This document shows, in pieces, positions 734 to 18,754 of a stretch of DNA of 64,000 nucleotides (its first letter is position 1; each line of letters starts with the position of its first letter). A program made the position numbers and the translations under genes. The stretch is taken from contig OZ252299.1 in the NCBI GenBank assembly GCA_965250285.1, positions 5,095,966 to 5,159,965 of the forward strand. Direction: 5' to 3'. The stretch comes from Myxococcota bacterium. Its GTDB lineage: Bacteria > Myxococcota_A > UBA9160 > UBA4427. A model generated the notes under the pieces. That model was not told where the DNA came from, searched no databases, and worked only from the letters and a program-made list of their open reading frames with translations.

Positions 734-737
734 GCTG

Positions 738-1202
738 CTACTCCGTCTTCGCGACGGTCTCGCCGCCCGTCGCCGCGGAGTGGAGCGTGTGCCAGCAGAG
801 CGTCGCGCACTTCACGCGCATCGGAAACTCTCGGACCCCCGAGAACACGGCGAGCTTGCCGAGACCCGGCGCGTCGACGTCCTGGTTCGGCGGCGCGGTC
901 ACGAGCTCGTGGAATCGCTCGAAGCCCTCCTCGACCTCCTTGAGCGTTTTGCCCTTCACGAACTCGGTCATCAGCGATGCCGAGGCGGTCGAGATCGCGC
1001 ACCCCGAGCCCGTGAAGCCCACGTCCACGACCTGATCGCCCTCGACGACGAGCTCGACCGTCACCTCGTCGCCGCAGAGCGGGTTGTGCCCTTCGGCGGT
1101 CGCCGTGGGTTCATCGAGATGGCCGAAGTTCCTCGGGTTCTTGTTGTGATCGAGGATCATCGTCTGGTAGAGCTCGCGCAGCTCGTCGTCGACGCCGTCC
1201 AT
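738..1202 (-). CDS. sufU: SufU/IscU-like Fe-S scaffold or sulfur-acceptor protein
   Basis: Three-Cys scaffold pattern: HNPLCGDEV, GSGCAISTASASL, VKCATL. Only the last 154 codons of the 474-aa track ORF are credible; the rest overlaps sufS out of frame. The start ATG 1202-1200 overlaps the sufS stop as ATGA. Confidence 0.85.
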   Translation of the reverse strand: MDGVDDELRELYQTMILDHNKNPRNFGHLDEPTATAEGHNPLCGDEVTVELVVEGDQVVDVGFTGSGCAISTASASLMTEFVKGKTLKEVEEGFERFHELVTAPPNQDVDAPGLGKLAVFSGVREFPMRVKCATLCWHTLHSAATGGETVAKTE

Positions 1203-2446
1203 CAGCCGAAGAGCTCCCGTGTCTTGTCGAGACCGACGATCAGCTGATCGACGTCCTCGAACGTGTTGTAGAGGGAGAACGAGGCCCGCACCGTGGCCGG
1301 CACCCCGAAGCGCTTCATCAGCGGCTGGGTGCAGTGATGTCCCACGCGCACCGCGACGCCCTCCTGGTCGAGGATCGTGCCGACGTCGTGGGCGTGCACG
1401 CCGTCGAGGACGAACGAGATCACCGCCGCCTTGTCTTTGGTCGTGCCGAAGATCCGCACGCCGGGCATCGACTCGAGCGCCGCCGTCGCGCGCTCGAGCA
1501 GCTGGTGCTCCCACGCTGCGATCTGATCGAGCCCGACGCCTTCGACCCAGTCGACGACGGCACCCAGCGCGATGGCCCCGGCGATGTCGGGCGTGCCGGC
1601 CTCGAACTTCTCGGGCACCGGCGCGTACGTCGTCTTCTCGAACGTCACCGTCTCGATCATGCCGCCGCCGCCCAGGAAGGGGGGCATCGCGTCGAGCAGC
1701 TCGCCGCGACCGTAGAGCACGCCGATGCCGGTGGGACCGAAGAGCTTGTGCCCCGAGAATGCGTAGAAGTCGCAGCCGAGGGCTTCGACGTCGACCCGCA
1801 TGTGCGGCACGGCCTGGGCGCCGTCGACCAGCACGCGGGCGCCGCGTGCCTTGGCCAGGGGGATCATCTCGTGCAGGGGCAGCACGGTGCCGAGGGTGTT
1901 CGAGACGTGGGCGACGGCGACGAGCTTCGTGCGGTCGTCGAGCGCCGAGGCGAAGCGCGCCACATCGATCGAGCCGTCTTCCTCGATCGGGACGACGACG
2001 AGCTCGATCCCCTTGCGATCGCGCAGCATCTGCCAGGGCACGATGTTCGCGTGATGCTCGAGCTCGGTGATGACGACGCGGTCGCCTGCTTCGAGGTTCT
2101 CTTCGGCCCAGGTGCGCGCGACGAGGTTGATCGCCTCGGTGGCGTTGCGCACGAAGATGCACTCGCGCGCTTCGTGGGCGCCGATCAGTGAGGCGACCTT
2201 GCCTCGCGCGTCCTCATAGCGGCGCGTCGCATCGGCCGAGAGCTGGTAGACGCCGCGATGGATGTTTGCGTAGCCCCGCGCGTAGACGTCTTCGATCGCG
2301 TCGATCACGGCCTGCGGCTTCTGCGCGCTCGCGGCCGAGTCGAGGAACGCAAGGCGTTTGCCGCGCACCTTCGTCTCGAGGATCGGGAACTGTGCCCGCA
2401 CGGCGTCGACGTCGAAGGGGCCGTGAGCGAACTCTGAAGCGGTCAT
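1202..2446 (-). CDS. sufS: Cysteine desulfurase SufS (PLP-dependent)
   Basis: Motifs AHVSNTLG, FSGHKL (PLP lysine) and RVGHHCTQP (catalytic Cys loop). The start is placed at MTASEF (2446-2444), which overlaps the sufD stop as ATGA. Confidence 0.9.
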   Translation of the reverse strand: MTASEFAHGPFDVDAVRAQFPILETKVRGKRLAFLDSAASAQKPQAVIDAIEDVYARGYANIHRGVYQLSADATRRYEDARGKVASLIGAHEARECIFVRNATEAINLVARTWAEENLEAGDRVVITELEHHANIVPWQMLRDRKGIELVVVPIEEDGSIDVARFASALDDRTKLVAVAHVSNTLGTVLPLHEMIPLAKARGARVLVDGAQAVPHMRVDVEALGCDFYAFSGHKLFGPTGIGVLYGRGELLDAMPPFLGGGGMIETVTFEKTTYAPVPEKFEAGTPDIAGAIALGAVVDWVEGVGLDQIAAWEHQLLERATAALESMPGVRIFGTTKDKAAVISFVLDGVHAHDVGTILDQEGVAVRVGHHCTQPLMKRFGVPATVRASFSLYNTFEDVDQLIVGLDKTRELFG

Positions 2447-3792
2447 CGCTCGACCTCCGCGAGCGCGCCGTGCTCGGCATGCAGCTGCTCGACGAGCAGC
2501 CTGCCCGTCCACTCCTCGAGCTCGCGACCCGGCAGGCGCTCGGTGACCTCGGCCGCGAACCCCTCGGTCAAGAGCGCTCGGGCTTCGGGCTCCGAGAGGC
2601 CCCGAGCGCGCAGGAAGAAGAGCGCTTCGTCATCGAGGCGCCCCACCGTCGAGCCGTGGCTGCACTTCACGTCATCGGCCCGAATCTCGAGCTGCGGCTT
2701 CGTGTCGATCTCGGCCTGGTCGGTCACCAGCAGGTTCGGGTTCGACTGAGTGGCGTTGGTCTTCTGGGCACCGGGGCGCACGTCGACGCGCCCTCGAAAC
2801 ACACCGCGAGACCGGCCGCCGAGCACACCCTTGTAGAGCTCGTGGCTCTCGCAGTGCGGTGCCGCGTGCACGACCAGGGTCTGGTTCTCGAGATGCTGCT
2901 CACCGCCGCCGGTGAAGGCGCCGTCGAGCCGGGCCTCGGCGCCCGGCTCGGCGAGCTCGATCTCGAGCGCGTTTCGCACGAGGCGCCCGTCGAAGGTCAA
3001 CACGTGGGAGTGGAAGAAGCTGTCGCGGGCCTGTCGTACGCGGGTGTTCGAGATGTGGAACCGCTCGCCGCCCTCGCGCTGCAAGAGCACGTGTTCGAGT
3101 CGCGCGTTCGCTTCGACCTCGATGCGGATGACCGCATTGGTGAAGCCAGACGCCTGACCCAATCCGACGTGATCCTGGACCACGACGCACTGGCTGCCCT
3201 GCTCGGCCACGATCTCGACACGCGGGTAGCTCGCGCCGGCGGCCGCGCTCGCGACGAAGACGAGATGCAGCGGTGCGTCGACCCGGGCGTCGCGGGTGAT
3301 CGTCACCAGCGCACCGTCTTCGACGAAGGCGGCGTTGAGGCACGTGAACGCGTCATCGACGTCTTCGGTATCGCCCGCCGAGAGCCAGCGCTCGAGCGCT
3401 TCATCGTCGCCGCGCACGTCGGCCAGCCGGGTGACGCCGACGCCTTCGGGCAGCGACGCATCCGAGAGCGCCGCCTCGAAGCGACCGTCCACGAAGACCA
3501 GGCGAGGGCCGAAGGGCTGCTCGGGCAGGAACGCGGCGAGTTCGTCGCTCGAGACCTTCGAGTCGGGGGCCGCGACGCGAGAGAAGGCTTCGCCTTCGAG
3601 CGCGCGTAGGTTGGTGTAGCGCCAGTCTTCGTCCTTGCGCGTCGGAAAGCCGAGTGCGCCGAATCGCTCGATCGCTTCTCGGCGAAGCGCGCGCAGGCCA
3701 TCGGCGTCGCGGCCGGCATCGCCCGTCGCGAAGGCGTCGAACTCGGCGAGATAGTGTGCCGTGATCGGCGGAGTGTCGGCGGCCGAACTCAT
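2443..3792 (-). CDS. sufD: Fe-S cluster assembly protein SufD
   Basis: SufBD-family C-terminal segment ([37 protein letters not shown]). Positioned between sufC and sufS. The start at MSSAADTPP overlaps the sufC stop as ATGA. Confidence 0.85.
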
Positions 3793-4553
3793 GCGGGGGC
3801 TCCTGCGGCGGCCTCTTCCTCGACCCATCCGTAGCCGCGTTCTTCGAGCTCGAGGGCGAGATCCTTGCCGCCGGTCTTGACGATGCGGCCGTGCGCCAGC
3901 ACGTGCACCTGGTCGGGCACGATGTAGTCGAGCAGGCGCTGGTAGTGCGTAATGACGAGCATCGAGCGGTCGGGCGATCGCAGCGAGTTGACGCCGTTCG
4001 CGACGATGCGCAGCGCATCGATGTCGAGCCCCGAGTCGGTTTCGTCGAGCACGCAGAGCTTGGGCTCGAGCAGCAGCATCTGGAGCACCTCGTTGCGCTT
4101 CTTCTCGCCGCCGCTGAAGCCCTCATTGATCGAGCGGCTCATCAGGTCGGACGGCATCTCGACGAGGCTCATCTTCTCCTTCGAGAGCTGCAGGAAGTCC
4201 ATGGCGTCGAGCTCGGGCAGACCTCGATGGGCCCGCACCGCGTTCACGCTGGCCTTGAGGAAGTACCGGTTGTTCACGCCCGGGATCTCGACCGGGTACT
4301 GGAAGGCGAGGAAGATGCCTTCGCGTGCGCGCACCTCGGGCTCCATCTCGGTCAGGTCCTGGCCTTCGAAGGTCACCTTGCCTTCGGTGACTTCGTAGCC
4401 CGGACGGCCGGCGAGCACGTTCGAGAGCGTGCTCTTGCCCGAGCCGTTCGGGCCCATCACGGCGTGGATCTCGCCGGGCGCGATCTCGAGGTCGATGCCC
4501 TTCAGGATCTCGGTCCCGTCGGCGGTGGCGTGGAGGTTCTCGATCTTCAACAT
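3789..4553 (-). CDS. sufC: Fe-S cluster assembly ATPase SufC
   Basis: Walker [13 protein letters not shown] signature FSGGEKKR, Walker [13 protein letters not shown]. About 250 aa with no TM domain, as for SufC. Confidence 0.95.
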
Positions 4554-4610
4554 GGTGAATCCGTTTCGCCCTGTGCGGGGTCGGGGGGGGTGGGGGGATG
4601 CGTCAGCGGG

Positions 4611-6074
4611 TCAACCGACGCTGCCTTCGAGACTGACCGAAAGCAGATTCTGGGCCTCGACGGCGAACTCCATCGGCAGCTCGCGCAAGACCTCCTTGCA
4701 GAAGCCGTTCACGATCATCGAGACCGCATCCTCTTCGTCGATGCCGCGCTGGCGGCAATAGAACAGCTGGTCTTCGCCGATCTTCGAGGTCGTCGCTTCG
4801 TGCTCGACCGTGGCGCTGCTGTTCTCGACTTCGAGGTAGGGGAAGGTGTGCGCGCCGCACTCGTCGCCCAGCAGGAGCGAGTCGCACTGCGAGTAGTTGC
4901 GGGCGCCCTCGGCCTTCTTGCCGATGCGCACGAGGCCGCGATAGCTCTGCTCGCCCTGCCCCGCCGAGATGCCCTTCGAGATGATCGTGCTCTTCGTGTT
5001 CTTGCCGAGGTGGATCATCTTCGTACCGGTATCGGCCTGCTGCTTGTTGTTCGTCATCGCGACCGAATAGAACTCGCCCACCGAGTCGTCGCCCTGCAGG
5101 ATGCAGCTCGGGTACTTCCAGGTGATCGCCGAGCCCGTCTCGACCTGGGTCCACGAGATCTTGCTGCGGTCGCCGCGGCAGGCTCCGCGCTTGGTCACGA
5201 AGTTGTAGATGCCACCCTTGCCGTCCTTGTCGCCCGGGTACCAGTTCTGGACGGTCGAGTACTTGATCTCGGCGTCGTCGAGGGCGACGAGTTCGACCAC
5301 CGCGGCATGCAGCTGGTTCTCGTCGCGCATTGGCGCGGTGCAGCCTTCGAGGTAGCTGACGTAGCTCGCCTCTTCGGCGACGAGCAGGGTGCGTTCGAAC
5401 TGGCCGGTGCCGGCCGAGTTGATCCGGAAGTACGTCGACAGCTCCATCGGGCAGCGCACGCCCTTGGGAATGAACGCGAAGCTGCCGTCACTGAAGACCG
5501 CGCTGTTCAGACATGCGAAGAAGTTGTCGCTGTAGGGGACGACCGAGCCGAGGTACTTCTTCACGAGCTCGGGGTGATCCTTCACTGCCTCGCTGAACGA
5601 GCAGAAGATGATGCCCTGCTTCTCGAGCTCGTCCTTGAACGTGGTGGCGACCGACACGCTGTCGAAGACCGCATCGACGGCGACCTTGACGCCCGAGAGC
5701 CGCTTCTGCTCGAGCAGCGGGATCCCGAGCTTGTCGTAGGTCGCGAGCAGCTCGGGGTCGACCTCGTCGAGGCTCTCGAGCTCTTTCTTCGGCTTCGGCG
5801 CCGAGTAGTAGATGATGTCCTGGTAGTCGATCTTGGGATAGTCGACCGCGGCCCAGGTCGGCTCGTTCTCGGTCTCGAGCATCTCGAGGAACCGGCGCAG
5901 CGCCTTCAGTCGGAAGTCGAGCAGCCACTCGGGCTCCTCCTTCTTCGCGCTGATCAGCCGAACGACGTCTTCGTTGAGCCCGGGCGGGGCCTGGTCGGCC
6001 TCGATGTCGGTCACGAAGCCGTACTTGTATTCCTGATTCGCGAGCTGCTCGAGCTCGGCGTTCGACTCGGACAT
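4611..6074 (-). CDS. sufB: Fe-S cluster assembly scaffold SufB
   Basis: 487 aa with typical SufB sequence throughout (YKYGF..., [46 protein letters not shown]). Confidence 0.95.
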
Positions 6075-6610
6075 CAGTTCATCTCCTCACCCGCGCTCGG
6101 GGCGGGGTCGTCGGCGGTGGGGACGTGGGCGCTCGAGCCCGGGATCTGGATCAGCGCGAGCGGGGCGTGCTGGGCCGAGAAGGCCGGATTCACGAGATCG
6201 GCGAGGCTGACCTCGCTGAGGGCGTTCTCGACGACGCGGTTGATGACCTGCCACGGCGAGCGCACCGCGCAGGTGCTCTCGTGATCGCAGGCGCCCGGAT
6301 CGACGGCGCACTGGGTCAGGGCGACCGGACCGTCGAGCGCCGCCACGAGCTCGGCGACGCTCAGGTCCTCGGGTCGGCGCGTCAGGGTGAAGCCGCCCTT
6401 CGCGCCCCGGTGACTCTCGAGCACGCCGCCGCGCGCGAGCTGCTTGAGCACCTTGCTGACGACGGGCAGCGGCAGGTCGACCTGGCCGGCCAGTTCACGT
6501 GCGTTCTGCGGCGGCTGCGGCTCGGCGCTCTCTCCGCGCGCGCCGCGCGCGCTCGCGAGGTGGGCGAGCAGCACGATCCCGTAGTCGGTCATGCGGCTGA
6601 GTCGGAACAT
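6074..6610 (-). CDS. Rrf2-family (IscR-like) transcriptional regulator, first gene of the suf operon
   Basis: N-terminal Rrf2 wHTH ([19 protein letters not shown]...[29 protein letters not shown]). Cys triad [14 protein letters not shown] suited to an Fe-S ligand set. Its stop overlaps the sufB start (TGATG). Confidence 0.85.
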
Positions 6611-6792
6611 CGTTGCCTCGTGCGCTGCGCGTCTCGAGCGGTCACCGCCGGCGTCTCGGCGTGGCCGCTCGAGCGGTAATGGGTCCGTCTGGATCGCTCG
6701 ACCAGAGGCCCGAGCCGGGCGCTCTCGATCGAAGGGGGCGTCGCCGAGACCCGGGTACCCGGCGTGGCGGGCCGGGGTCTCGTGCGGCGCAG

Positions 6793-6849
6793 ACGATATC
6801 GGACCAGATTACTCCTGTAAATATCGGACCATTGCTGTACGAATTACTC
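6793..6849 (-). promoter_or_regulatory. Putative suf promoter with duplicated Rrf2/IscR-like operator boxes
   Basis: Locally AT-richer patch. On the minus strand, TTTACA (6821-6816), a 17-nt spacer, then TATCGT (6798-6793). On the plus strand, ATATCGGACCA occurs twice (6796-6806 and 6821-6831) and ATTACTC twice (6808-6814 and 6843-6849). Site 1 matches about 17 of 25 positions of the IscR type-1 consensus as I recall it. Confidence 0.35.
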
Positions 6850-6931
6850 AGATGCAGCAAGTCGCCGCGAGGGATCGCGATTCGCAGAATTTCCTGCGGG
6901 GAAATCGAGCGATCGGCGCCGCGTCCGACGC

Positions 6932-8233
6932 TCAGACGACCTCGCCGACGCCGCTCCACCGCGCGAGGGGCAGCAGCACTGGCTCGCCGTCGTGGGGCCA
7001 GTCGAGCGGGGGGGCCTGCATCTGCCCGAGCGGGCAGACCCGCGTCGCGTCCAGCGCGGCGATCGCGCCGAGCGCGGGGTGGTCGCGTGCGTCGCCGTAG
7101 CCGGCGAAGCCCACGGTCGAGAGATGGCGGGCGACCGGCTCGACCGCTTCGGCCCAGGCCTCGAGGTCGACGGCCGGATGCACGCGGACGAATCGCCCGA
7201 GCGGGGCGCCCCGGAGCCCGGCTTCGTCCTCGAGGATCACGCTCCAGGCGGTGTCTTCGCTCGCCAGCACGCGCACCGAACGCCCGGCGGCCGCGCGCAT
7301 CGCCGCCTCGTCGCGCTCCCCCCGGATGCGTGCGCCGACGTCGGGCGAGACCGGGCCGCGCGGCATGTCGATGGCCAGCGCCTGCAGCACCTCGGCGACC
7401 CCTTCCGCGAACCGCTCGGCCGCGTGTGCTTCGCCCCCGATCACGTGGACGCAGATGGGAGACAGGCAGCCGGACTGATCCCAGAGCGCCACGTCGAGCG
7501 CGAAGTCTGCGGCGGCCTCATCGAGGGCACCGTCCCGGCAGCCGTTCGCGTCGACCACGGCGAGCGACAAGCGGTGGCCGTAGCCGACGAGGCGGTTCGC
7601 GGCACCGACGCGCGCGGCGATGTCGCGCAGGGTCGCGTCCGAACCGCTCGCGACGATGCACGGCGCGTCGAGGAATGCGTCGAGCGTCGCCGTGTCGTCG
7701 CCGTCGAAGTCGATCACCTCGAGGCACGCGCCGATCTCGGCGTCGACGTCCCGCAGACACTCCGCGACGAGCCGCGCGCTGATCCGGTCGCGCGACGCGG
7801 TCTTGGCCAGCACCGGTGAACGCACCAGCAGCGGCGTCAGGCAGCTGACCAGCGTCGGCATGGGGATGCTGCCCGCGAGCACGACGCTCGTCTGCGCGTG
7901 AGGCCGCAGCACGCGGCCCGCGCGCAAGGAGGGCCCGAGCTCGAGATCGACGAGCGCCCGGACGGCGTCGAGATCCCACCCGGCGAGCGCGAGCTCGAGC
8001 CCGGTGGCGATGGTCGGCGCCGTGAAGCCCGTCGCCTCGGGCAGGGCCTCGACGAGCCGGGCCCCCTCGTGATGCGCCGCGCTGCGAAATCGTTCGAGCA
8101 CCTGCCCGACGATCCCGACCACGTCTTCGAGCGGGCGGGCGAGCAGCGCAGTGCGTGCTTCGGCGAGCCGGCCGGTCGCTTCGTGCACGCGGTCGACGCC
8201 CGCGTCGGGCCACTCGATCGTGAGATCACCCAT
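6932..8233 (-). CDS. LuxC-like acyl-CoA/acyl-protein reductase (aldehyde-forming)
   Basis: 433 aa. Contains VVLAGSIPMPTLVSCLTPLLVRSPVLAKTASRD and LWDQSGCLSP (aldehyde-dehydrogenase-like catalytic Cys), as in LuxC-family reductases. Lies directly downstream of a LuxE-like gene. Confidence 0.7.
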   Translation of the reverse strand: MGDLTIEWPDAGVDRVHEATGRLAEARTALLARPLEDVVGIVGQVLERFRSAAHHEGARLVEALPEATGFTAPTIATGLELALAGWDLDAVRALVDLELGPSLRAGRVLRPHAQTSVVLAGSIPMPTLVSCLTPLLVRSPVLAKTASRDRISARLVAECLRDVDAEIGACLEVIDFDGDDTATLDAFLDAPCIVASGSDATLRDIAARVGAANRLVGYGHRLSLAVVDANGCRDGALDEAAADFALDVALWDQSGCLSPICVHVIGGEAHAAERFAEGVAEVLQALAIDMPRGPVSPDVGARIRGERDEAAMRAAAGRSVRVLASEDTAWSVILEDEAGLRGAPLGRFVRVHPAVDLEAWAEAVEPVARHLSTVGFAGYGDARDHPALGAIAALDATRVCPLGQMQAPPLDWPHDGEPVLLPLARWSGVGEVV

Positions 8234-8403
8234 GCGGGTTCGTCTCTGCAGCTCGTCGCATCGTGCGCTCAGCCATGCGAGTTCGTCCCTGCAGCTCGTC
8301 GCATCGTGCGCTCAGCCATGCGAGTTCGTCCCTGCAGCTCGTCGCATCGTGCGCTCACCCATGCGAGTTCGTCCCTGCAGCTCGTCGCATCGTGCGCTCA
8401 CCC
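8226..8403. repeat. Four head-to-tail copies of a 43-bp repeat spanning the luxE-like/luxC-like junction
   Basis: Minus-strand unit is GCGCACGATGCGACGAGCTGCAGGGACGAACTCGCATGGSTGA. Copies lie at 8397-8355, 8354-8312, 8311-8269 and 8268-8226, with 0-3 mismatches. The plus-strand CATG landmarks at 8231, 8274, 8317 and 8360 give an exact 43-nt period. Confidence 0.95.
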
Positions 8404-9558
8404 AAGGCGGGGCGCCTCGCTCGGCGCGGCGTCGAGCATCAGGTCGGCGGCGATCGAGCAGCCCCGTGCTTCGGCGCCGGGCTCTCGGCCGAGCACCTCG
8501 AAGCCACGCCCGAAGCGCCCATCATCGGTCTCCGCATCGATCCAGCGCCCGAGGTCGGCGGTCTGGATCGCCGCGACGCTGCCCGTATTGGCCAGATCGT
8601 GAATGACGACGAGCCCGGGGGCGTCGCCTTCGACGTCGCGGCCGGTCTCGGGGTCGACGAGGCGCACGCGCGCCCACGGTGGCCCGAGCTTGCGGCGGCG
8701 GCCGACGTCGTCGACCAGCACAGAGTCGTAGAACTGGCTGCCGAGCTCGGTCATGCCGTACTGGTTGACGATCTGCGTGGGGGCGATGCCGAACGTCTCG
8801 TGCAGTGCGGAGTAGAACGTGTCGCGTGAGATCTCGCGCGAGCGGCCCTTGAAGCCGCCGGTCTCCATGATGCGCGAGCCGGGTGCGCATGCGAATCGAT
8901 GACCGCGTTCGGCGCACGCATCGAGCGCATGCACGAACCCGAAGGCGGTGCCGCAGAGGGCGACCGGCTTCTGCGCATCGCCCGCGCGAGCGAGGGCGGC
9001 GATCAACCCGTCGACGTCGAGCTCACCGTCCGTCACGTCGAAGCCGCTGTGTGCGTCGCCGACGTCGTCGATCAGGCAGCCGAACATGTGAGAGAGCGAC
9101 GAGTCGTCGAGCTCGTCTGGCGAGGGCGCGAGCACGCGCAGCGTCATCCGCTCGCGCGGGTTGCGCCCCAGGTCGGGGAAGAGCAGCTGCGCGAGCGTCG
9201 GTGCGAGCGAGGCCTCGTAGAGCGCGAGCGTGTCGAGCAGCAGGGTGCCCCGGCGTGCGCCGGCCGCCGCGCTCGTTCCGCTCGTGCGAAACACGTGGCG
9301 CGTGGCGTCGCTCGGAAAGCAACGCAGCTCGAGCTCCTTGAACGCGCCCGTTGGCACCGCGGGCACGTCGCGCCACGATGTGACGCTGCCCGGCGTCGCG
9401 CCACGGGCCTCGCAGAAGCGGCCATACGGCGCGTTGGCTTCGTACTGAAACGCGAACAGGTCGAGCGACAGCGTCTCGAAGCGCGGATCGTCGGCTCGCC
9501 ACTCGGGCTCGCTCATCCAGGTGAGCAGCTCGCGTTCGATCGCTTCGCGCGTGCTCAT
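8398..9558 (-). CDS. LuxE-like acyl-protein synthetase (adenylate-forming)
   Basis: The real part of the 583-aa track ORF starts at MSTREAIERE (ATG 9558-9556). Motifs FRTSGTS and METGGFKGRSREI resemble LuxE/PaaK-type adenylating enzymes. The start overlaps the aminotransferase stop as ATGA. Confidence 0.7.
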   Translation of the reverse strand: MSTREAIERELLTWMSEPEWRADDPRFETLSLDLFAFQYEANAPYGRFCEARGATPGSVTSWRDVPAVPTGAFKELELRCFPSDATRHVFRTSGTSAAAGARRGTLLLDTLALYEASLAPTLAQLLFPDLGRNPRERMTLRVLAPSPDELDDSSLSHMFGCLIDDVGDAHSGFDVTDGELDVDGLIAALARAGDAQKPVALCGTAFGFVHALDACAERGHRFACAPGSRIMETGGFKGRSREISRDTFYSALHETFGIAPTQIVNQYGMTELGSQFYDSVLVDDVGRRRKLGPPWARVRLVDPETGRDVEGDAPGLVVIHDLANTGSVAAIQTADLGRWIDAETDDGRFGRGFEVLGREPGAEARGCSIAADLMLDAAPSEAPRLG

Positions 9559-10871
9559 GCCGATCCCTTCGAGGCGCTGCGAATGAGTCGCGCGAGCACG
9601 TCGACGGCGAAGTCGAGCGCCGGCTCGGTGATGCAGAGTGGGGGCGTGAGCGAGAGCACGCGCCCGCCCTCGCCCGAAGGCAGCAGGATCAAACCCTGCT
9701 CGAGGGCGCGCTGGCAGACGTCGAGGGCGAGCTCGGGCGCGCTGCATTCGATGCCGATCATCAATCCGCGTCCGCGCACCTCGTGCACGCCATCGTCGCC
9801 CGCGAGGCGCGCACCGAGCTGGGCGAGCGTCGCGGTGCCGACGCGGGCAGCGTGCTCGACGAGCCCCGACGCTTGGATCACTTGCATCGAGGCGAGCGCT
9901 GCTGCGCAGCTCGCCGGGTGGCCGAGGAACGTCTGCGTGTGCAGCGCTTCGCCGGTCGACGCGGGCCAGGCTTCCATGACGCGAGCGCGCCCGAGGCAGG
10001 CCGAGATCGGCATACCCGAGGCGAGGCCCTTGCCGACGCAGAGCAGGTCGGGCACGACGCCCTCGTGATCGCAGCCAAACCACGTGCCGGTGCGACCGAA
10101 GCCGGTGTAGATCTCGTCGGCGATCAATAGCAGGCCGCGGTCGTCGCACATCGTGCGGAGCGTGCGAAGAAAGCCGTCCGGCGGGACGCGCTCGCCGCCG
10201 CGGCCCTGCACCGGCTCGACCAGCACGGCGCCGATCTCGCGGTGCGCATCGAGCTTGATTCGGGCGTCTTCGGCGTCGCCGAAGCGGGCGAAGACCGTCT
10301 CATGTGGCAGGCGCGCGCGGAACGGCGCGCGAAAGTCGTCCCGGTGCGTCGCATCGAGTGCGCCGAGGGCGAGGCCGTGATAGCCGCCTTCGAATGCGAG
10401 TACGCCGACGCGACCGGTCGAGAGCGCGGCGGTCTTGAGCGCCGTTTCGACCGCGTCGCTCCCCGAGGACGACAGCACGCCGCGCGCCGACTCGCCGCCG
10501 GGATAGCGAGCGCACAGCGCTTCGAGCAGCTCGACCTTGACGGCGGACGGATGGACGTCGCCCATGCCGTGCAGCAGCTCGGCCGACTGGCGCGTGATCG
10601 CTTCGACGACGGCCGGGTGGGCGTGCCCGACGTTCGAGACGCCGAACGCGCCGCCCAGGTCGAGGAAGCGGTTGCCGTCGACATCCCACACGTTCACGCC
10701 CGACGCGCGCTGCCAGAAGATCGGCGCCGGCGGACCGAGATGCGTGACGTTGCGGCTCTCGACGGCAGCGAGCCGCTGCGCAAGCGCCTCTGAACGAGGG
10801 CCGGGAATGGCCGTCACGAGGTCGGGCAGCAGCGGTTCGGGCCACCGAGGGCTGGGGTCGGGGGTCGACAT
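9555..10871 (-). CDS. Class-III (omega-type) PLP aminotransferase
   Basis: 438 aa. Contains GGYHG, LLIADEIYTGFGRTGTWFGCDHEGVVPDLLCVGKGLASGMP (PLP Lys region) and THLGHPASCAAAL, typical of the GabT/ArgD-like fold. Confidence 0.85.
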   Translation of the reverse strand: MSTPDPSPRWPEPLLPDLVTAIPGPRSEALAQRLAAVESRNVTHLGPPAPIFWQRASGVNVWDVDGNRFLDLGGAFGVSNVGHAHPAVVEAITRQSAELLHGMGDVHPSAVKVELLEALCARYPGGESARGVLSSSGSDAVETALKTAALSTGRVGVLAFEGGYHGLALGALDATHRDDFRAPFRARLPHETVFARFGDAEDARIKLDAHREIGAVLVEPVQGRGGERVPPDGFLRTLRTMCDDRGLLLIADEIYTGFGRTGTWFGCDHEGVVPDLLCVGKGLASGMPISACLGRARVMEAWPASTGEALHTQTFLGHPASCAAALASMQVIQASGLVEHAARVGTATLAQLGARLAGDDGVHEVRGRGLMIGIECSAPELALDVCQRALEQGLILLPSGEGGRVLSLTPPLCITEPALDFAVDVLARLIRSASKGSA

Positions 10872-10999
10872 GGCGTTCGAGTGTAGCCGTGGCGGCTCGC
10901 GGCCTTGGGGTGCCGCGTTCCGGCGCGCTGGCGGGCCGGGCTAGAGTGGGTTGCGTGCATCGGCCGACGCACGCGCGCCGCCATTGAGAGAAGGAAGGA

Positions 11000-11515
11000 A
11001 TGAAGGCCTGCATCGGGCTCGGGTCGAACCTCGGCGATCGCCTCGCGATGCTGCGCGCCGCGCGCGAGGCGCTCGACGGCGCCGCGCGCATGCGGGTGCT
11101 CCGAGCGTCGCGCGTGTACGAGACCGCGCCGGTCGGCCCGGGGGACCAGGGGCCCTACTTGAATGCGGCGCTGCTCATCGAGACCGAGTGGCCGCCCCGC
11201 GCGCTCCTCGGACGCCTCCTCGAGATCGAGCGCGGCCTGGGCCGCGATCGCAGCGCCGCCGCGGTGCGCTGGGGGCCGCGCACGATCGATCTCGATCTGC
11301 TCCTCGCCGGCGACCTCAGCATCGAAGAGCCGGGGCTCGAGTTGCCCCACCCGAGGCTGCACGAGCGGGCGTTCGTGCTCGTGCCCCTGGCCGAGGTCGC
11401 GCCGGAGGCACGTCATCCCGGTCTCGGGGTTCGCATCGACGAGCTGGCCGCGCGGGCGCCCGGGCTGGATCAGATCGCGTGCCTCGAGACGGTGGGCACC
11501 GCCGACTGGCTCTGA
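11000..11515 (+). CDS. folK: 2-amino-4-hydroxy-6-hydroxymethyldihydropteridine diphosphokinase (HPPK)
   Basis: IGLGSNLGDR start, YETAPVG, RWGPRTIDLDLL and HPRLHERAFVLVPLAE are hallmark FolK motifs. Confidence 0.9.
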   Translation: MKACIGLGSNLGDRLAMLRAAREALDGAARMRVLRASRVYETAPVGPGDQGPYLNAALLIETEWPPRALLGRLLEIERGLGRDRSAAAVRWGPRTIDLDLLLAGDLSIEEPGLELPHPRLHERAFVLVPLAEVAPEARHPGLGVRIDELAARAPGLDQIACLETVGTADWL

Positions 11516-11638
11516 GCGCCCGCGACGCGACCTTTGTCGAGATTCATGATCCCTCGGCGGGGTTTCTTGCATCGAACTCCGCAGCCTGGTAATCAGGAAT
11601 TTCCGGGTCACCCTCCCCAGAATCCCCTGGAGCGCGCC

Positions 11639-12442
11639 ATGACAGCCGCCGAACACACGACCGGGCCAACCCCGGTGCTCACGGACGTGTCACGAGAATC
11701 CAGTCAAATCAGTGACTTGCATTCCTTCGATGCCGAGGCAATGGAGGCGTCGAGTCCCGAAGAAATCTTGACCTGGGCGATCGGAAAATATCATCCGCGG
11801 CTCACCCTGAGCGCTTCTTTCGGCGCGCCCGAAGGGATGGTGCTGCTGGACATGATGCACGAGATCGATCCCTCGACGCGCGTCTTCGTTCTCGACACGG
11901 GCCGACTCCATCAAGCGACCTTCGATCTGATCGATCGGGTGCGCGACCGTTACGACAAGGACATCGAGGTGATCTTCCCCGACGCCGAGGCCGTGCAGGA
12001 CATGGTCCGCGAGAAGGGGATGAACCACTTCTACGAGTCGCTCGAGAATCGCAAGCTCTGCTGCCGCATTCGCAAGGTCGAGCCGTTGCGCCGCCACCTG
12101 GCCCACTTCGACGCGTACGTCACGGGCCTGCGTCGCGATCAGAACGTCACGCGCCGCGACACGCCGAAGGTCGAGCTCGACGTCGGCAACGGCGGTCTGG
12201 TCAAGATCAATCCGATCGCCGACTGGACCCACGAGCAGGTGATGGACTACGTCGGCGAGCACAAGGTGCCGACCAACCGTCTGCATGCCGAGGGCTACCC
12301 GTCGGTGGGCTGCGCGCCTTGCTCGCGCGCGATCGCGCCCGGTGACGATCCGCGCGCTGGACGCTGGTGGTGGGAGAGCGAGGAGACCAAGGAGTGCGGT
12401 CTTCACGTGCCCGACGAGCAGCAGGGCGGCCTCGGCATCTGA
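11639..12442 (+). CDS. cysH: Adenylyl-sulfate/PAPS reductase, thioredoxin-dependent (Fe-S type)
   Basis: PAPS_reduct fold with the CC...CxxC cluster motif (KLCCRIRKVEPL, SVGCAPCS) and C-terminal ECGLH. The start is placed at MTAAEHT (ATG 11639) rather than the track start 11534. Confidence 0.9.
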   Translation: MTAAEHTTGPTPVLTDVSRESSQISDLHSFDAEAMEASSPEEILTWAIGKYHPRLTLSASFGAPEGMVLLDMMHEIDPSTRVFVLDTGRLHQATFDLIDRVRDRYDKDIEVIFPDAEAVQDMVREKGMNHFYESLENRKLCCRIRKVEPLRRHLAHFDAYVTGLRRDQNVTRRDTPKVELDVGNGGLVKINPIADWTHEQVMDYVGEHKVPTNRLHAEGYPSVGCAPCSRAIAPGDDPRAGRWWWESEETKECGLHVPDEQQGGLGI

Positions 12443-12632
12443 GGCGTCGCCCCCCGCCCGAGCGCACGCTCGGCCCCAGTGTCGCATGCGTCTCGCGTCG
12501 CCTCGCCTCGTCTCACCTCATCGCGACCGGCAGCCCGCCGGCAGCCGATGCGCAGCATGGCAGCCGATTCAAGGCGCGGCGCGACTCGGCCGATGAAGGG
12601 AGTGGCCGGGTGTGTGGCCAGGGGAGTGACGG

Positions 12633-13058
12633 ATGAGCAGCGTGCGGACAACGATCGGTCGAGGCCTGGGCTTTGCTGCGCTGGCCTGCGCGCTCGTGCT
12701 TGCGGTGGGCGGGGTGACGGCGGCGCGCGCCGACGAGGCTCCGGCCGAGTCGAGCCCGCCCGCGCCCGATGCGAGCTTCGAGGGCTTCGCCGATCACCTC
12801 GAGCGCGAAGGACGTCCCGTCGTCGAAGACGCGGGGCCCACCTGCCAACCCGGCGCGAACGATCCGGTCGCCGTCGAGATGGCCCACCGCCGCGTCGTGG
12901 CCGAGCTGCAGGCGCGCCTGCAGGCCGAGGCGCGCGCACGCGCCGCCGAGCACGGGGGCGACCCCGAGATCGTGGTGCTCAATGGCCGGGGCTACAACTA
13001 CCGCGCCCCCACCCCCGGCGAACAGCCGCCGGCGCCGGTGACCCCGCCCCAGGACTGA
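12633..13058 (+). CDS. Secreted hypothetical protein
   Basis: N-terminal signal peptide (GLGFAALACALVLAVGGVTAARA). GC3-rich frame. No recognisable domain. Confidence 0.5.
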   Translation: MSSVRTTIGRGLGFAALACALVLAVGGVTAARADEAPAESSPPAPDASFEGFADHLEREGRPVVEDAGPTCQPGANDPVAVEMAHRRVVAELQARLQAEARARAAEHGGDPEIVVLNGRGYNYRAPTPGEQPPAPVTPPQD

Positions 13059-13093
13059 TCTCGCCCGACGGCGGCGCCATCTCCGTGCGCGGC

Positions 13094-13232
13094 CGCGGCA
13101 CCCTCTTCGCGCCGAGCTGATCTGCGTCTGCGTGCCCGCGGCACCCTCTTCGCGCCGAGCTGATCTGCGTTTGCGTGCTCGCGGCACCCTCGTCGCGCCG
13201 AGCTGATCTGCGGCTGCGTGCCCGCGGCCGCC
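13094..13232. repeat. 3.2 copies of a second, unrelated 43-bp tandem repeat
   Basis: Unit is CGCGGCACCCTCTTCGCGCCGAGCTGATCTGCGTCTGCGTGCC. Copies lie at 13094-13136, 13137-13179 and 13180-13222, plus a partial copy. The array starts 36 nt after the stop of the 12633-13058 gene and lies about 160-300 nt upstream of the histidine kinase start. Confidence 0.9.
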
Positions 13233-13394
13233 GCCTCTTTCATGTCGCCGCAGCGCGTCGAGACCGCCCGATGAGCCCGCGGGCGCTCGCTCATCGAGCG
13301 ACGATCTGTGCGATCCTTCGCCGCTCTGGGGCAAAGCGCAAACGTTGGGACGCCGTCGGCACCGGGTTGAACCGACGGCGCTCGGGACCCGTTC

Positions 13395-15932
13395 ATGGAT
13401 CCGGTTTCCACCCTTCGAGTCCGGCGTCTGACCGGCACGCTGGCTGCGCTGTGGGCGATCTCAGCGGTGGCCATGTCGGCCTTCGCGCTGATCCCTCGCG
13501 CCGATACGCCCTCGCTCCCCTTCAGCAGCGCCTTCGTGGCCGGCGTGGCCTTGATCCACGCCGTCGGACCCGACGCACGCGAAGCGGGCATCGAGCCCGG
13601 CGACGAGTGGATCTCGATCGACGGTGAGCCGGTCGTGCGGATGATGGATGAAGGGCGGGGCGCGCTCTTCCCGGGGCGCGTGAACGTCTACGAGGTCGAG
13701 AAGCAGGATGGCCGGGTCGTCAAGGCCGCGCTCTCGCCCCAGCCACCGGGCGCAAACGAGCGGCCCGGCGATCTGCTGCTGCACTTCGCGCTGCTGATCG
13801 TCGCGTCGCTCTACGTGACGGTCGGTCTCGCGGTGTGGTGGAGCAAACCGGGGACGGCCGAGGCGTGGGCGCTCCTGCTCTTCTGCTCGACGATGACGGT
13901 GCTGATCTCGACGACGATTCGCGCCGACGAGGTGCCGTGGTCGTTCTCGCGCGTGCTCGCGAACCTGCCCTTCATCGGTGCGACGACGTTCCACCTGTTC
14001 ACGACCTATCCGATCGAGCCGCCCTGGATCGTCCGCTATCGACGCACGCGCGCGGTGCCCTATCTGCTCGCATTCGCGATCTTTCTGGGCGTGGTCGGCG
14101 TGCGCGCGGGCACCATCGACGCTCGACTGATGGCATCGATCGCGGGCTTCTACGGCGTCGGCGTCGCGCTGGCCTCGGTGGCGGTGCTCGCGGCGCAGCG
14201 GCGGCGCGCACACGACGCGGGGATCGGCGAGCGCGTCGACCTCATGTTGCTCGCGGGCGTCGTGAGCTTCGTGCCGATGCTGCTGATGATCGGCATGGTC
14301 TACGTGCTGCAGACGCCGATCCCCTGGTACATGGCCATGCTCTGGGTGGGCTTCTTCCCGCTCGCGGTGGGCTACGGGATGCTGCGCAAGCAGCTCTTCG
14401 ACTTTCGCATCGTCGCGCGCTCGTCGGCCGCCTACGGCGCCGCGACCTTCACCATCACCGGTTTGTTCGCGTTCTCGATCACCTTCGCCGACGAGCTGAT
14501 CCAGACCTACGGCGTGAACGTGCGCAGCGTGCAGGTGATCCTGCTCTTTCTCGCGATCCTCGCCTTCAATCCGCTGCGCGAACGACTGCAGGGGCTGGTC
14601 GATCGCCTCTTCGATCGCGACCGCGCGCGCTATCGCCAGGCCGTGCGAGAGATCTCGGAGGCGATGGTGTCGATGCTGTCGCTGGGTGAGATCGGCGATC
14701 GCATTCTCGTCGCCGTGACCGACACCATGGGCGTCGAACGCGCGATGGTCCTGCTCTTCGACGAGAACGACAAGGTGCTGCGGCCGGCCGCGTGGCGCGG
14801 CGATTGGGACGAGCAGGACGTCCAGGCCGAGATCCCGAGCGAGCATCCGATCTGGAAGCACCTGTGGATGCGGCGCGAAGAGCTGATGCGCGCCGATTTC
14901 GACGACGAGCCCGACGCCGAGGCCCGCGAAGAGTGCTGGGACGTGTACGACACGCTCGAGGTCGAGCTGCTCGTGCCCATCCTCTTCGGTGTCGATCTGC
15001 TGGGGGTGATCGTCGTGGGGCGGAAGCTCTCGGGCGAGCGTCTGACGCCCGACGATCGACAGCTCCTGCGCACGCTCGCGAATCAGAGCTCGATCGCCAT
15101 CGAGAACGCCAAGGCGTTCGACGAGATCGCCAAGCTGAACGAATCGCTCGAGGCCCGCGTCGAGGAGCGCACCCAGGAGCTGCGCGAGACGCAGACGCAG
15201 CTGATGCAGAGCGAGAAGATGAGCTCGCTCGGTCAGCTCGTCGCCGGCGTCGCCCACGAGCTGAACAACCCGATCGGGTTCGTGCACGCCAATCTGCAGC
15301 TGCTCGACGAGTTCATCGAGAAGCTCGCGACGGCGCAGGCGTCGGGGGCCGACACCGAGCGGGTGCGCGAGGCGATCACCAAGCTGCTGACGCGCAGCCG
15401 CGAAGGCACCGAGCGCGTGAAGAAGATCGTGCAGGATCTGCGTACGTTCTCGCGCATGGATCAGGCCGAGAGCCAGATGGCCGATCTGCACGAGGAGATC
15501 GACCGGACGCTCGCGCTGATGGAGCCGCGGCTCAAGAACAAGATCAAGATCGACCGGCACTACGGCGACATCCCCGAGGTGCGCTGCTATCCGGGGCAGC
15601 TCAACCAGGTGTTCCTCAATCTGCTCATGAATGCCTGTGACGCGCTCGACGACACGGGCGGCACGATCCGCATCTCGAGCGAGCGCAGCGACCTCGGCGT
15701 GCGGCTCGAGTTCGCCGACGACGGGCCAGGGATCCCGATGCATGTCCAAAGCCGCATCTTCGATCCATTTTTCACCACCAAGGAGGTGGGCAAGGGCACG
15801 GGCCTGGGGCTCTCGCTCTCCCACGGCATCGTGGAGCGCCACGGCGGGCGCTTCCTGGTGCACTCGGAGCCCGGCGAGGGCGCGACCTTCGTGCTCGATC
15901 TGCCGCTCGACGCGGCGCCGGCGGCCGAATAG
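13395..15932 (+). CDS. Multi-pass membrane sensor histidine kinase with GAF domain
   Basis: H box HELNNPIGFVHANLQLL, N box LNLLMNACDAL, G boxes DDGPGIP and GKGTGLGLS. Preceded by a GAF-like segment, about 10 hydrophobic helices and a PDZ-like GIEPGDEWISIDGEPV segment. Confidence 0.9.
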   Translation: MDPVSTLRVRRLTGTLAALWAISAVAMSAFALIPRADTPSLPFSSAFVAGVALIHAVGPDAREAGIEPGDEWISIDGEPVVRMMDEGRGALFPGRVNVYEVEKQDGRVVKAALSPQPPGANERPGDLLLHFALLIVASLYVTVGLAVWWSKPGTAEAWALLLFCSTMTVLISTTIRADEVPWSFSRVLANLPFIGATTFHLFTTYPIEPPWIVRYRRTRAVPYLLAFAIFLGVVGVRAGTIDARLMASIAGFYGVGVALASVAVLAAQRRRAHDAGIGERVDLMLLAGVVSFVPMLLMIGMVYVLQTPIPWYMAMLWVGFFPLAVGYGMLRKQLFDFRIVARSSAAYGAATFTITGLFAFSITFADELIQTYGVNVRSVQVILLFLAILAFNPLRERLQGLVDRLFDRDRARYRQAVREISEAMVSMLSLGEIGDRILVAVTDTMGVERAMVLLFDENDKVLRPAAWRGDWDEQDVQAEIPSEHPIWKHLWMRREELMRADFDDEPDAEAREECWDVYDTLEVELLVPILFGVDLLGVIVVGRKLSGERLTPDDRQLLRTLANQSSIAIENAKAFDEIAKLNESLEARVEERTQELRETQTQLMQSEKMSSLGQLVAGVAHELNNPIGFVHANLQLLDEFIEKLATAQASGADTERVREAITKLLTRSREGTERVKKIVQDLRTFSRMDQAESQMADLHEEIDRTLALMEPRLKNKIKIDRHYGDIPEVRCYPGQLNQVFLNLLMNACDALDDTGGTIRISSERSDLGVRLEFADDGPGIPMHVQSRIFDPFFTTKEVGKGTGLGLSLSHGIVERHGGRFLVHSEPGEGATFVLDLPLDAAPAAE

Positions 15933-15982: not shown

Positions 15983-17023
15983 ATGAAGCTCGGCATCCTC
16001 TCCGGCTATTCGCCGGCCACCATGAACATCAACATCGACGGCATCCGGCACGCCGAAAGCCTCGGCTACGACTCGTGTTTCACCGCCGAGGCCTACGGCT
16101 CGGACGCCGTCTCGCCCGCAGCTTGGATCCTGGCGCAGACCGAGAAGATCAACGTGGGCACGGCGATCATGCAGATGCCGGCGCGCTCGCCCGCCAACAC
16201 GGCGATGACCGCGATGACGCTCTACGCGCTCTCGGGCGGTCGCTTCATTCTGGGCCTCGGCCCTTCGGGCCCGCAGGTCGTCGAAGGCTGGCACGGGGTG
16301 CCCTACGGCAAGCCCCTCACGCGGACGCGCGAGTACATCCAGATCATCCGCAAGATCCTCGAGCGCAAGGAGCCCGTGAGCTTCGAGGGCGAGATCTACC
16401 AGATGCCCAACACCGGGCCGGGCACGACCGGCCTCGGTAAGCCGCTCAAGAGCATCCTGCACGGCGACCCGGCGATGAAGATCTACACCGCGTCGATCTC
16501 GCCGAACGGCATGCGCTGCGCCGGTGAGGTGGCGGACGGCGTCTTCCCGGTGTGGATGGATCCGACGCGCTTCGACGTGTTCGAGGAGCACCTGCAGAAG
16601 GGCTTCGACAAGGCCGGCGGCGGCAAGTCGCTCGACGACTTCACGATCGCGCCGTTCGTGACGTGCATCATGGGCGACGACCTCGAGAAGTGCCGCATCC
16701 CGGTCAAGAACCAGCTGGCGCTCTACGTCGGCGGCATGGGCGCACGCGACAAGAACTTCTACAACGACTACACCCAGCGGCTCGGCTTCGAAGAGGCTGC
16801 GAAGACGATCCAGGATCTCTACCTGGACGGGAAGAAGGCCGAGGCGGTCGCTGCCGTGCCCGACGAGTACGTCGATCGCGTCGCCCTGGTCGGTCCCCCC
16901 GATCGGATTCGCGATCAGCTGGGTGCCTGGAAGGAAGCGGGCGCGAAGAACCACGTCGGTACGATGCTGATCGGCGGCGGCGGCAAGAAGGCCTACGAGC
17001 TGCTCGCCGAGGAGCTGCTGTAG
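15983..17023 (+). CDS. LLM-class (luciferase-like) flavin/F420-dependent oxidoreductase
   Basis: 346 aa. Contains MKLGI..., AESLGYDSCFTAEAYGSDA and RFILGLGPSGPQVVEGWHGVPYGKPLTRTREYI, typical of the LLM F420-dependent family. Confidence 0.85.
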   Translation: MKLGILSGYSPATMNINIDGIRHAESLGYDSCFTAEAYGSDAVSPAAWILAQTEKINVGTAIMQMPARSPANTAMTAMTLYALSGGRFILGLGPSGPQVVEGWHGVPYGKPLTRTREYIQIIRKILERKEPVSFEGEIYQMPNTGPGTTGLGKPLKSILHGDPAMKIYTASISPNGMRCAGEVADGVFPVWMDPTRFDVFEEHLQKGFDKAGGGKSLDDFTIAPFVTCIMGDDLEKCRIPVKNQLALYVGGMGARDKNFYNDYTQRLGFEEAAKTIQDLYLDGKKAEAVAAVPDEYVDRVALVGPPDRIRDQLGAWKEAGAKNHVGTMLIGGGGKKAYELLAEELL

Positions 17024-18348: not shown

Positions 18349-18582
18349 GCCGAGCTTGATCTTGCGCTTGAGTCGTAGACCGGGCACGACCTCGAGGGGC
18401 CGGTCGTGCATCACGACCTGCACGGATCCGAGCTGGTAGCGCCAGCGCACCCCGCCCGAGAACGGGTAGTCGTCGCTCTCGTCGACCGGCGCGAGCATGC
18501 GCGCGTCCCACGCAACGATCTGCGCGGCATCGGTCAGGGCCTGCCAGACCCGCTCCGGGTCGGCCTCGATCACCCTCGACAT
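18127..18582 (-). CDS. SRPBCC (START/polyketide-cyclase-like) family protein
   Basis: 151 aa from MSRVIEADPERVWQALTD, the typical SRPBCC opening. The upstream part of the 261-aa track ORF is Arg/Ser-rich junk. Confidence 0.7.
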   Translation of the reverse strand: MSRVIEADPERVWQALTDAAQIVAWDARMLAPVDESDDYPFSGGVRWRYQLGSVQVVMHDRPLEVVPGLRLKRKIKLGSLRYDQTFSLTPIDQRPDQTNLAVKLVTPNWIPLVGDSVDRFSARELATQHVDDTLRQVQSFFDSGGGASART

Positions 18583-18722: not shown

Positions 18723-18754
18723 TGGGTTCGGATCGCTGAGGTGAGTCAGCCGGA

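Follow-up and report, generated by a model that had tools for sequence, protein, structure and literature searches.

We describe here a trio of co-directional genes on the minus strand of a Myxococcota genome (assembly GCA_965250285.1, contig OZ252299.1), which encode a class-III pyridoxal phosphate (PLP)-dependent aminotransferase (AT), a LuxE-like protein and a LuxC-like protein and are likely, by themselves, to make up a pathway that turns a carboxylic acid into a primary amine. The trio is unrelated to light emission. It lies in the 64,000-nucleotide stretch at positions 5,095,966 to 5,159,965 of the contig, called the window below, which has a G+C content of approximately 69%. In the proposed pathway, whose first two steps are suggested by conserved residues, the LuxE-like protein would adenylate the carboxylic acid with ATP using Lys237 and Arg358 and move the acyl group to its own C-terminal Cys367. 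Its flexible C-terminus would then hand this group over to Cys256 of the LuxC-like protein, where the thioester would be reduced by NAD(P)H to the free aldehyde. Finally, the AT would turn the aldehyde into the primary amine, a step to which gene linkage, gene fusions and the replacement of the AT by alcohol dehydrogenases in related operons point. The three genes, in the order of transcription, are:

9555–10871, minus strand: AT, 438 amino acids (aa); Pfam PF00202, 327.8 bits, E = 1e-97
8398–9558, minus strand: LuxE-like acyl-protein synthetase, 386 aa from the ATG at 9558; PF04443, 70.7 bits (cut-off 24.9)
6932–8233, minus strand: LuxC-like acyl-thioester reductase of the aldehyde dehydrogenase (ALDH) superfamily, 433 aa; PF05893, 156 bits (cut-off 21)

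An earlier note, made from the letters of the window alone, had described this arrangement, and the open reading frames (ORFs) agree with it. The TGA stop codon of the AT gene overlaps the ATG of the LuxE-like gene (ATGA at 9558–9555, minus strand ...GGA TCG GCA TGA GCA CG...), and a 43-bp tandem repeat is situated between the LuxE-like and the LuxC-like gene. In line with the note, no gene of the LuxA/LuxB or LuxD families was found within or beside the operon, and the gene of a luciferase-like monooxygenase (LLM) is located 5 kb away on the plus strand (15983–17023). Neither a PP-binding nor an NAD_binding_4 domain was detected by Pfam in the three trio proteins, and the operon has no space for an acyl carrier protein (ACP) gene.

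The LuxE-like and LuxC-like proteins

The LuxE-like protein matches PF04443 over residues 25–369. Its sole match in the PDB at E ≤ 0.01 was 7xc6_E (E = 2e-20), to which it aligned along its length. Lys237, Arg358 and Cys367, the latter within the motif RGCS, align with Lys238, Arg355 and Cys364 of LuxE; all three are invariant in an alignment of 16 relatives and conserved in 83 clade sequences. In LuxE of Photobacterium phosphoreum, Lys238 and Arg355 serve adenylation and thioesterification, and Cys364 in the C-terminal KGC motif is the acyl carrier (PMC9157457).

For the LuxC-like protein, the sole PDB match at E ≤ 0.01 was 7xc6_A. Its putative catalytic Cys256 (motif DQSGCLS) is invariant in all subgroups and aligns with Cys296 of P. 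phosphoreum LuxC, the one residue essential to that enzyme (PMC9157457). The earlier note had named PaaK and generic ALDH as competing assignments for the two proteins; at the same threshold no PaaK or ALDH structure was matched, and both proteins were assigned to the LuxE and LuxC families.

Within these families, the two proteins are remote from those of lux operons. Against the lux-operon LuxE equivalog (NCBIfam NF052244) the LuxE-like protein scored 81 bits compared with a cut-off of 550, and against the LuxC equivalog (NF052251) the LuxC-like protein scored 54 bits compared with a cut-off of 750. Judged by these scores, neither protein is a lux orthologue. In a rough neighbour-joining (NJ) tree, true LuxE was a long-branched outgroup to the entire non-lux family, and LuxE proteins linked to alcohol dehydrogenases grouped together, separate from the AT-linked ones. 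Members of the non-lux family carry the motif PDSSLSHM in place of HNIWFKYV of true LuxE. One related LuxE-like gene (L062, approximately 7800–7950) has an in-frame insertion of about 45 residues just ahead of the RRKLGPPW motif, built of imperfect repeats (…RRGEDTQAAL…GEDTLTGAFRRRGEETLSGAF…).

The LuxC-like protein lacks the N-terminal 35 or so residues of true LuxC and stops approximately 25–30 residues early, so that residues 465, 468 and 472 of P. phosphoreum LuxC have no counterpart. All AT-linked LuxC-like proteins finish soon after a conserved HDG region, without the P. phosphoreum segment 460–488. In LuxC, the C-terminal segment closes a 40-angstrom hydrophobic cleft for the myristoyl group (PMC9157457). 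The residue numbering was checked, and 19 of 20 published positions agreed; for the mapping of the cleft, the C-terminal deletion alone is reliable, since the N-terminal cleft positions 107–121 align poorly.

Conservation of the trio in its home lineage

Homologues of the LuxE-like protein number thousands, and the first 120 were 56–80% identical. A scan with one genome per species gave at least 596 matching genomes, and the best 80 were all metagenome-assembled genomes (MAGs), mostly labelled Myxococcota or Deltaproteobacteria. Linkage was counted in 82 related genome loci, these best 80 plus two further ones, with at least 1.3 kb taken as sufficient room upstream. An AT gene was found immediately upstream of the LuxE-like gene in all 77 loci with room, and a LuxC-like gene immediately downstream of it in all 70 loci with room, mostly with short gaps or overlaps between the three genes. 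This linkage, for which the earlier note had proposed a neighbourhood survey, is far beyond chance.

In the wider synteny, AT-LuxE-LuxC stands between folK on the AT side and Rrf2-sufB on the LuxC side, with varied insertions on either side of the trio and never inside it. ORF clustering of these variable inserts in 80 Myxococcota loci revealed no additional conserved partner gene; the inserts occurred sporadically and included a cation-diffusion facilitator (18 loci), a MOSC protein (8), a B12-radical SAM (S-adenosylmethionine) enzyme (7), a hydrolase (6) and an LLM (4). By clustering at 50%, the whole lineage formed one cluster, and the next relatives were at most 53% identical.

The inserted LLM is a 291-aa protein (PF00296) encoded directly after the LuxC gene on the same strand in L002 (10418–11293) and three other Myxococcota loci. 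It differs from the LLM at 15983–17023, whose protein gave no match to it in a tblastn survey. The latter gene belongs to a syntenic block: copies of 66–92% identity are located near cysH or a histidine kinase gene in L003, L004, L011, L014, L016, L041, L049 and L051, and it was not found beside the trio in other lineages. The MAGs with the same synteny are labelled Myxococcota, Deltaproteobacteria, Spirochaetaceae/Spirochaetales and, in one case, Gammaproteobacteria. One 'Spirochaetaceae' isolate is named HK-STAS-MYXO-51, and the Spirochaete labels look like taxonomy-mapping errors.

Other contexts, fusions and sister operons

Outside the home synteny, the module recurs in different surroundings. 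In L095, whose LuxE is 48% identical, AT-LuxE-LuxC is located among genes for a dUTPase, a toxin–antitoxin pair and polysaccharide genes. L097 has a different context, the order LuxE-LuxC-AT and an AT of another subfamily; among named organisms, Candidatus Binatia provides its closest homologues. With the L097 type as the seed, a metagenome scan yielded 80 loci, 34 of which hold LuxE and LuxC with enough flanking sequence. These comprised 16 loci with LuxE-LuxC-AT, six with AT-LuxE-LuxC, four with a zinc alcohol dehydrogenase (ZnADH) in the order ZnADH-LuxE-LuxC and eight with no recognisable partner. No third gene was common to the loci with LuxE and LuxC only, and no gene beyond the trio was common to the Binatia-type and the other trio loci. 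In three of the metagenome loci (L118, L120 and L124, in the last at 6157–8715), LuxC and AT are joined in a single ORF, which in each case matched Pfam LuxC and then Aminotran_3.

The closest cultured relatives of the LuxE-like protein (35–46% identity) share its non-lux motifs. They belong to operons in which a short-chain dehydrogenase/reductase (SDR) of the NCBIfam PRK08642 type follows, LuxE-LuxC-SDR, in Pantoea dispersa, Azospirillum, Priestia megaterium, Lactiplantibacillus plantarum and Modestobacter caceresii; their LuxC has about 480 aa. In L083–L086 and L088, which include Azospirillum lipoferum, such operons are located on plasmids and chromids of cultured bacteria, and RefSeq labels the LuxC homologue of the SDR-type operons 'GO: bioluminescence'. 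As a rule, a transporter is linked to these operons: an SSF symporter, an NCS2 permease or an ATP-binding cassette system of the NMT1 type. The binding protein of the latter resembles ThiY/THI5 more closely than it does any sulfonate binder in the PDB, and the NCS2 carrier of one operon is xanthine-permease-like. These transporters are suggestive of heteroaromatic acids as substrates in the SDR-type relatives, a clue that is not transferable to the AT-type module because the latter has no transporter. Probably, the operons with an SDR or a ZnADH convert an imported acid to an alcohol.

Further fusions within the family join LuxE with LuxC (about 790–870 aa) or a zinc alcohol dehydrogenase with LuxE (about 760–790 aa); they are found among P0133, P0150, P0151, P0152, P0177, P0213, P0246 and P0261. 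The simplest reading of these arrangements is that the LuxE/LuxC pair would be a general two-protein carboxylic acid reductase feeding a linked reductase, which gives an alcohol, or a linked transaminase, which gives an amine. Because the sister modules have either a zinc alcohol dehydrogenase or an SDR in place of the AT, the pair presumably hands its aldehyde to the aldehyde-consuming enzyme encoded next to it.

The aminotransferase and its possible roles

The AT was aligned with GabT, ArgD, PatA and BioA of Escherichia coli MG1655. Its PLP lysine is Lys281, which aligns with Lys268 of GabT, and the motif DEIYTGFGRTG and Thr297 are present. Residues Arg141 (Lys in PatA), Glu211, Gln242 and Arg398 of GabT are the substrate-recognition residues of GabT and ArgD; Arg141 binds the distal carboxylate and Arg398 the alpha-carboxylate of glutamate or 2-oxoglutarate. 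All four are replaced in the AT, and the replacements are conserved among 78 clade sequences:

GabT Arg141: Leu167 in the AT (Leu in 75/78)
GabT Glu211: Arg224 (78/78)
GabT Gln242: Tyr255 (75/78)
GabT Arg398: Ser407 (69/78)

In the same set, Lys281 is present in 78/78 and a further arginine, Arg228, in 75/78 sequences. The residue signature recurs in L095. We rejected the candidate assignment of Arg228 as the counterpart of BioA Arg253 (SAM binding), as the aligned BioA residue is Arg221; for this reason no inference on SAM as the amino donor was drawn. The second, Binatia-type AT subfamily retains Glu211 and Arg398 and has an invariant Asp at the position of GabT Arg141, like Asp147 of BioA.

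Three other roles of the AT, and one that leaves it aside, were weighed against transamination of the aldehyde. It is rather unlikely that the AT acts on another carbonyl or amino group of the substrate or before the reductase, for instance by adding or removing an alpha-amino group; the end product would then be an aldehyde, with or without an amino group, or a cyclic imine, and not a simple primary amine formed at the carboxyl carbon. The alignment of the invariant Asp of the Binatia-type ATs with BioA Asp147 (YHGD motif) would fit such a role, given that BioA acts on an amino-ketone, and so would the occurrence of both gene orders, AT-LuxE-LuxC and LuxE-LuxC-AT. However, the fusions place the AT C-terminal to LuxC, as in TamH (bioRxiv 10.1101/2025.08.11.669332), and in the place of the AT the sister operons have alcohol dehydrogenases, which are able to act on the aldehyde only.

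A housekeeping bypass of the ArgB/ArgC/ArgD, GabT or Asd/EctB kind, in which the corresponding dicarboxylic amino acid is converted to N-acetylornithine, gamma-aminobutyrate (GABA), ornithine or diaminobutyrate, is very unlikely. In both NCBIfam and the PDB, the AT is indeed most similar to GabT and acetylornithine aminotransferases (approximately 30–35% identity), and the trio is part of a conserved core-genome neighbourhood (folK, cysH, suf). On the other hand, all scores are far below the family cut-offs, with no NCBIfam equivalog near its own (best 306 bits compared with 639), the distal-carboxylate arginine is replaced by Leu and the Glu211/Arg398 pair by Arg/Ser. The earlier note had allowed for an AT that clusters with ArgD or GabT and has no conserved linkage to the other two genes; the low scores, the replaced residues and the conserved linkage all speak against this. 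As the carboxylate-binding arginines of GabT and ArgD are missing, the AT is, by its residues, a distinct subfamily and not housekeeping GabT or ArgD. Moreover, neither of the two AT subfamilies linked to LuxE/LuxC has the distal-carboxylate arginine, and GABA-, acetylornithine- or ornithine-type substrates are therefore disfavoured.

Class III also includes racemases and lyases. We give little credence to the idea that the presumed AT prepares or modifies the reductase substrate as a class-III lyase, racemase or epimerase. It would account for the absence of both donor-binding arginines of typical transaminases, and the archaeal class-III amino-acid racemases 9wrf and 9wqz are among the better PDB matches (222–229 bits). 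Against it, the PLP lysine and Thr297 are conserved, and the second AT subfamily retains the Glu211/Arg398 pair of glutamate-dependent transaminases, which argues for transamination as the chemistry coupled to the reductase.

Finally, it is highly improbable that the pair makes a fatty aldehyde for an LLM or for alcohol or alkane formation, as a cryptic lux-like system with the AT as a mere passenger. An LLM gene does lie 5 kb off, another directly follows LuxC in four related loci, and two Myxococcota, Enhygromyxa and Plesiocystis, have lux operons without luxB (PMC7671414; bioRxiv 10.1101/2023.02.27.530324). LLMs are, however, missing in most loci and in L095, L097 and the metagenome trios, whereas the AT is always present, and the LuxE-like and LuxC-like proteins are far from lux orthologues, with no LuxD and without the C-terminal cleft element of LuxC.

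Several points weigh against the proposed pathway. Coupling is evident from gene order and fusions, which are no proof, however, that the AT acts after the reductase, and eight of the 34 related LuxE-LuxC pairs have no linked partner. The amino donor of the AT and even the type of reaction are uncertain, because both canonical arginines are missing and the class contains racemases and lyases. The tree relating the subgroups is rough. In addition, the 164-nt repeat spacer in the window could reduce co-translation of the LuxE-like and LuxC-like genes.

Substrate

Some properties of the substrate may be deduced, each with reservation. It is probably made inside the cell, since no transporter is linked to the trio, unlike in the alcohol-forming relatives. 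Its far end is probably neutral or hydrophobic and without a second carboxylate, as suggested by Leu167 at the position of the carboxylate-binding Arg of GabT and ArgD. Probably, too, it is not bound in a myristate-type cleft. The earlier note had proposed a sequence from carboxylate to (fatty) aldehyde to amine; the sequence itself is well supported by comparative genomics, but a long-chain fatty acid as its substrate is not, because the LuxC-like protein has no counterpart of the tail by which LuxC closes its C14 cleft. Two more specific ideas are no more than speculation, namely salvage of pterin-6-carboxylate or folate, prompted by the folK neighbour, whose link is lost in L095, L097 and the metagenome loci, and salvage of the thiamin pyrimidine.

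Tandem repeat and flanking regions

The repeat and the non-coding flanks of the trio are located as follows:

8217–8404: 43-bp tandem repeat (Tandem Repeats Finder: 4.4 copies, 95% matches)
10872–10999: intergenic region of 128 bp between the trio and the divergent folK; presumed promoter/leader of the trio
6611–6931, minus strand: spacer from the LuxC-like stop codon to the Rrf2/suf operon, with a sigma-70-like site at 6821–6793

Compared with the closest relative L003, which has a plain overlap of LuxE stop and LuxC start (TTGGGTGA) and no repeat, the repeat adds 172 bp, exactly four 43-bp units, at this junction. It is specific to the genome of the window, and no copies beyond these four were found in the rest of the window. 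Every unit terminates in ATGG(G/C)TGA. On the minus (coding) strand, the repeat reads as four head-to-tail mini-ORFs of 16 codons (M[G/A]ERTMRRAAGTNSHG; MGERTMRRAAGTNSHG) joined by ATGGnTGA start/stop overlaps, and the final mini-ORF overlaps the ATG of the LuxC-like gene. The repeat may be a relay of translational coupling or a neutral slippage product.

A promoter scan called no sigma-70-like site in the intergenic region 10872–10999, and an Rfam E-value scan of 6000–13500 for riboswitches or leader RNAs gave chance-level miRNA-type matches only. The site at 6821–6793 was the sole one in the region (one found compared with 0.1 expected). Because of its position in the spacer 6611–6931, it probably marks the downstream end of the trio transcription unit. 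In related loci, other genes are inserted between the LuxC-like gene and the Rrf2/suf operon.

The trio is flanked downstream by the Rrf2-type SUF regulator and sufBCD and upstream by the divergent folK and cysH. The SUF Fe-S assembly operon is complete (200–6610, minus strand) and comprises an Rrf2/'suf_reg_Xantho' regulator, sufB, sufC, sufD and an FeS_assembly_P protein; the sigma-70-like match at 6793–6821 is directly upstream of the regulator gene. In Azospirillum lipoferum, an Rrf2 regulator is likewise divergent upstream of the LuxE-LuxC operon. Between cysH and a GAF-histidine kinase gene, an ORF of 141 aa (12633–13058, plus strand) has a G+C content at third codon positions of 0.87, which is coding-type, a hydrophobic N-terminus and no Pfam match. 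The region 18127–30207 shows no evident link to the trio; it encodes a Polyketide_cyc2/START-like protein, an amidase (19729–21165), an alpha/beta hydrolase, DUF6178, a YhhN-family (lysoplasmalogenase-type) membrane protein (26963–27808), DUF815 and a class I/II aminotransferase.

Comparison with known systems and significance

No description of a module of LuxE/LuxC and a class-III aminotransferase was found in the literature searched, an absence limited to that literature; the author of the earlier note had likewise been aware of no characterised pathway with this gene order. Papers on flagellin glycosylation islands concern other luxC and luxE paralogues, which occur with ACP and FabG.

We see an even chance that reductases of the LuxE/LuxC type with a class-III AT are a widespread, unrecognised natural carboxylate-to-amine family. 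This family would be core to a large uncultured Myxococcota lineage, with matches in at least 596 species-level genomes, as well as to soil bacteria of the Binatia-like kind. Its product would be a primary amine typical of the lineage and not explained by known pathways, for instance a signalling amine, an aminolipid precursor or a new polyamine. The ATs of the family would recognise substrate and donor in a non-canonical way, with Arg224 and Arg228 instead of the Arg141/Arg398 pair. If this is true, a compact three-gene route from a free carboxylic acid to a primary amine without a phosphopantetheine carrier already exists in nature. The LuxE/LuxC relay and the two AT subfamilies would then be new parts for biocatalysis, which now uses NRPS (nonribosomal peptide synthetase)-like carboxylic acid reductases (CARs) and omega-transaminases. 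As hundreds of uncultured Myxococcota and Binatia genomes retain the trio, without exception, the amine metabolite would be important to these bacteria. Furthermore, most members of the 'LuxE' and 'LuxC' families would be unrelated to light or, probably, to myristate, and annotations such as 'long-chain fatty acid--CoA ligase', 'acyl-CoA reductase' and 'GO: bioluminescence' would for this reason be misleading.

The LuxC-LuxE complex of P. phosphoreum (7XC6) shares with the trio the two Pfam families, the Lys/Arg pair, the (K/R)GC acyl-cysteine on LuxE and a single catalytic cysteine on LuxC; in both systems the genes are adjacent and, in relatives of the trio, overlapping. The trio differs in that identity to the lux proteins is only about 23–26%, LuxC is shorter by about 50 residues, luxA, luxB and luxD are missing and the aldehyde would go to the AT instead of luciferase. 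From the LuxE-LuxC operons with an SDR or ZnADH, the trio differs in having the AT where these enzymes stand, whereas those operons are usually linked to a transporter.

The biosynthesis of the tambjamine BE-18591 in Streptomyces albus offers a parallel in terms of logic. TabE is an ALDH-type acyl-ACP reductase, grouped with LuxC by the authors, and its aldehyde is converted to dodecylamine by the class-III omega-transaminase TabA (bioRxiv 10.1101/2025.08.11.669332). For TabE, a dedicated ACP within a natural-product cluster supplies the acyl group, and no ATP is needed, whereas in the trio the LuxE-like protein would activate a free acid, without an ACP and in a core-genome neighbourhood. TamH and PigE, of tambjamine and prodigiosin biosynthesis, respectively, combine a reductase and then a class-III transaminase domain in one protein, as do the LuxC-AT fusions of L118, L120 and L124, and the AT matches the NCBIfam model of PigE over its transaminase part (251 bits). 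Both act on carrier-bound polyketide or fatty intermediates, unlike the proposed pathway. PigE was rejected as a LuxC-AT fusion: the profile of the LuxC-like family gave no match in the 861-residue 4ppm_A at E ≤ 1, and the reductase parts are thus not detectably related.

Engineered cascades of an NRPS-like CAR (A-T-R) and an omega-transaminase (PMC11606446) likewise lead from acid, ATP and NADPH via the aldehyde to the amine. A CAR is a single polypeptide with a phosphopantetheine arm, whereas the trio would use a two-cysteine relay on two proteins and a natural pairing with the transaminase. The activation, reduction and transamination of a carboxylate, with a class-III aminotransferase as the last enzyme, are also known from ArgB/ArgC/ArgD and LysZ/LysY/LysJ. 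In the ArgB/ArgC/ArgD system, however, activation is by phosphorylation and reduction by a GAPDH (glyceraldehyde-3-phosphate dehydrogenase)-type enzyme, and the AT of the trio lacks the specificity residues of ArgD. What is known, then, is the reductase–transaminase logic; the trio departs from its precedents in the proposed activation of a free acid by a LuxE-type enzyme with two cysteines as the relay, in its independence of a carrier, in its placement in the core genome and in the unusual active sites of the ATs.

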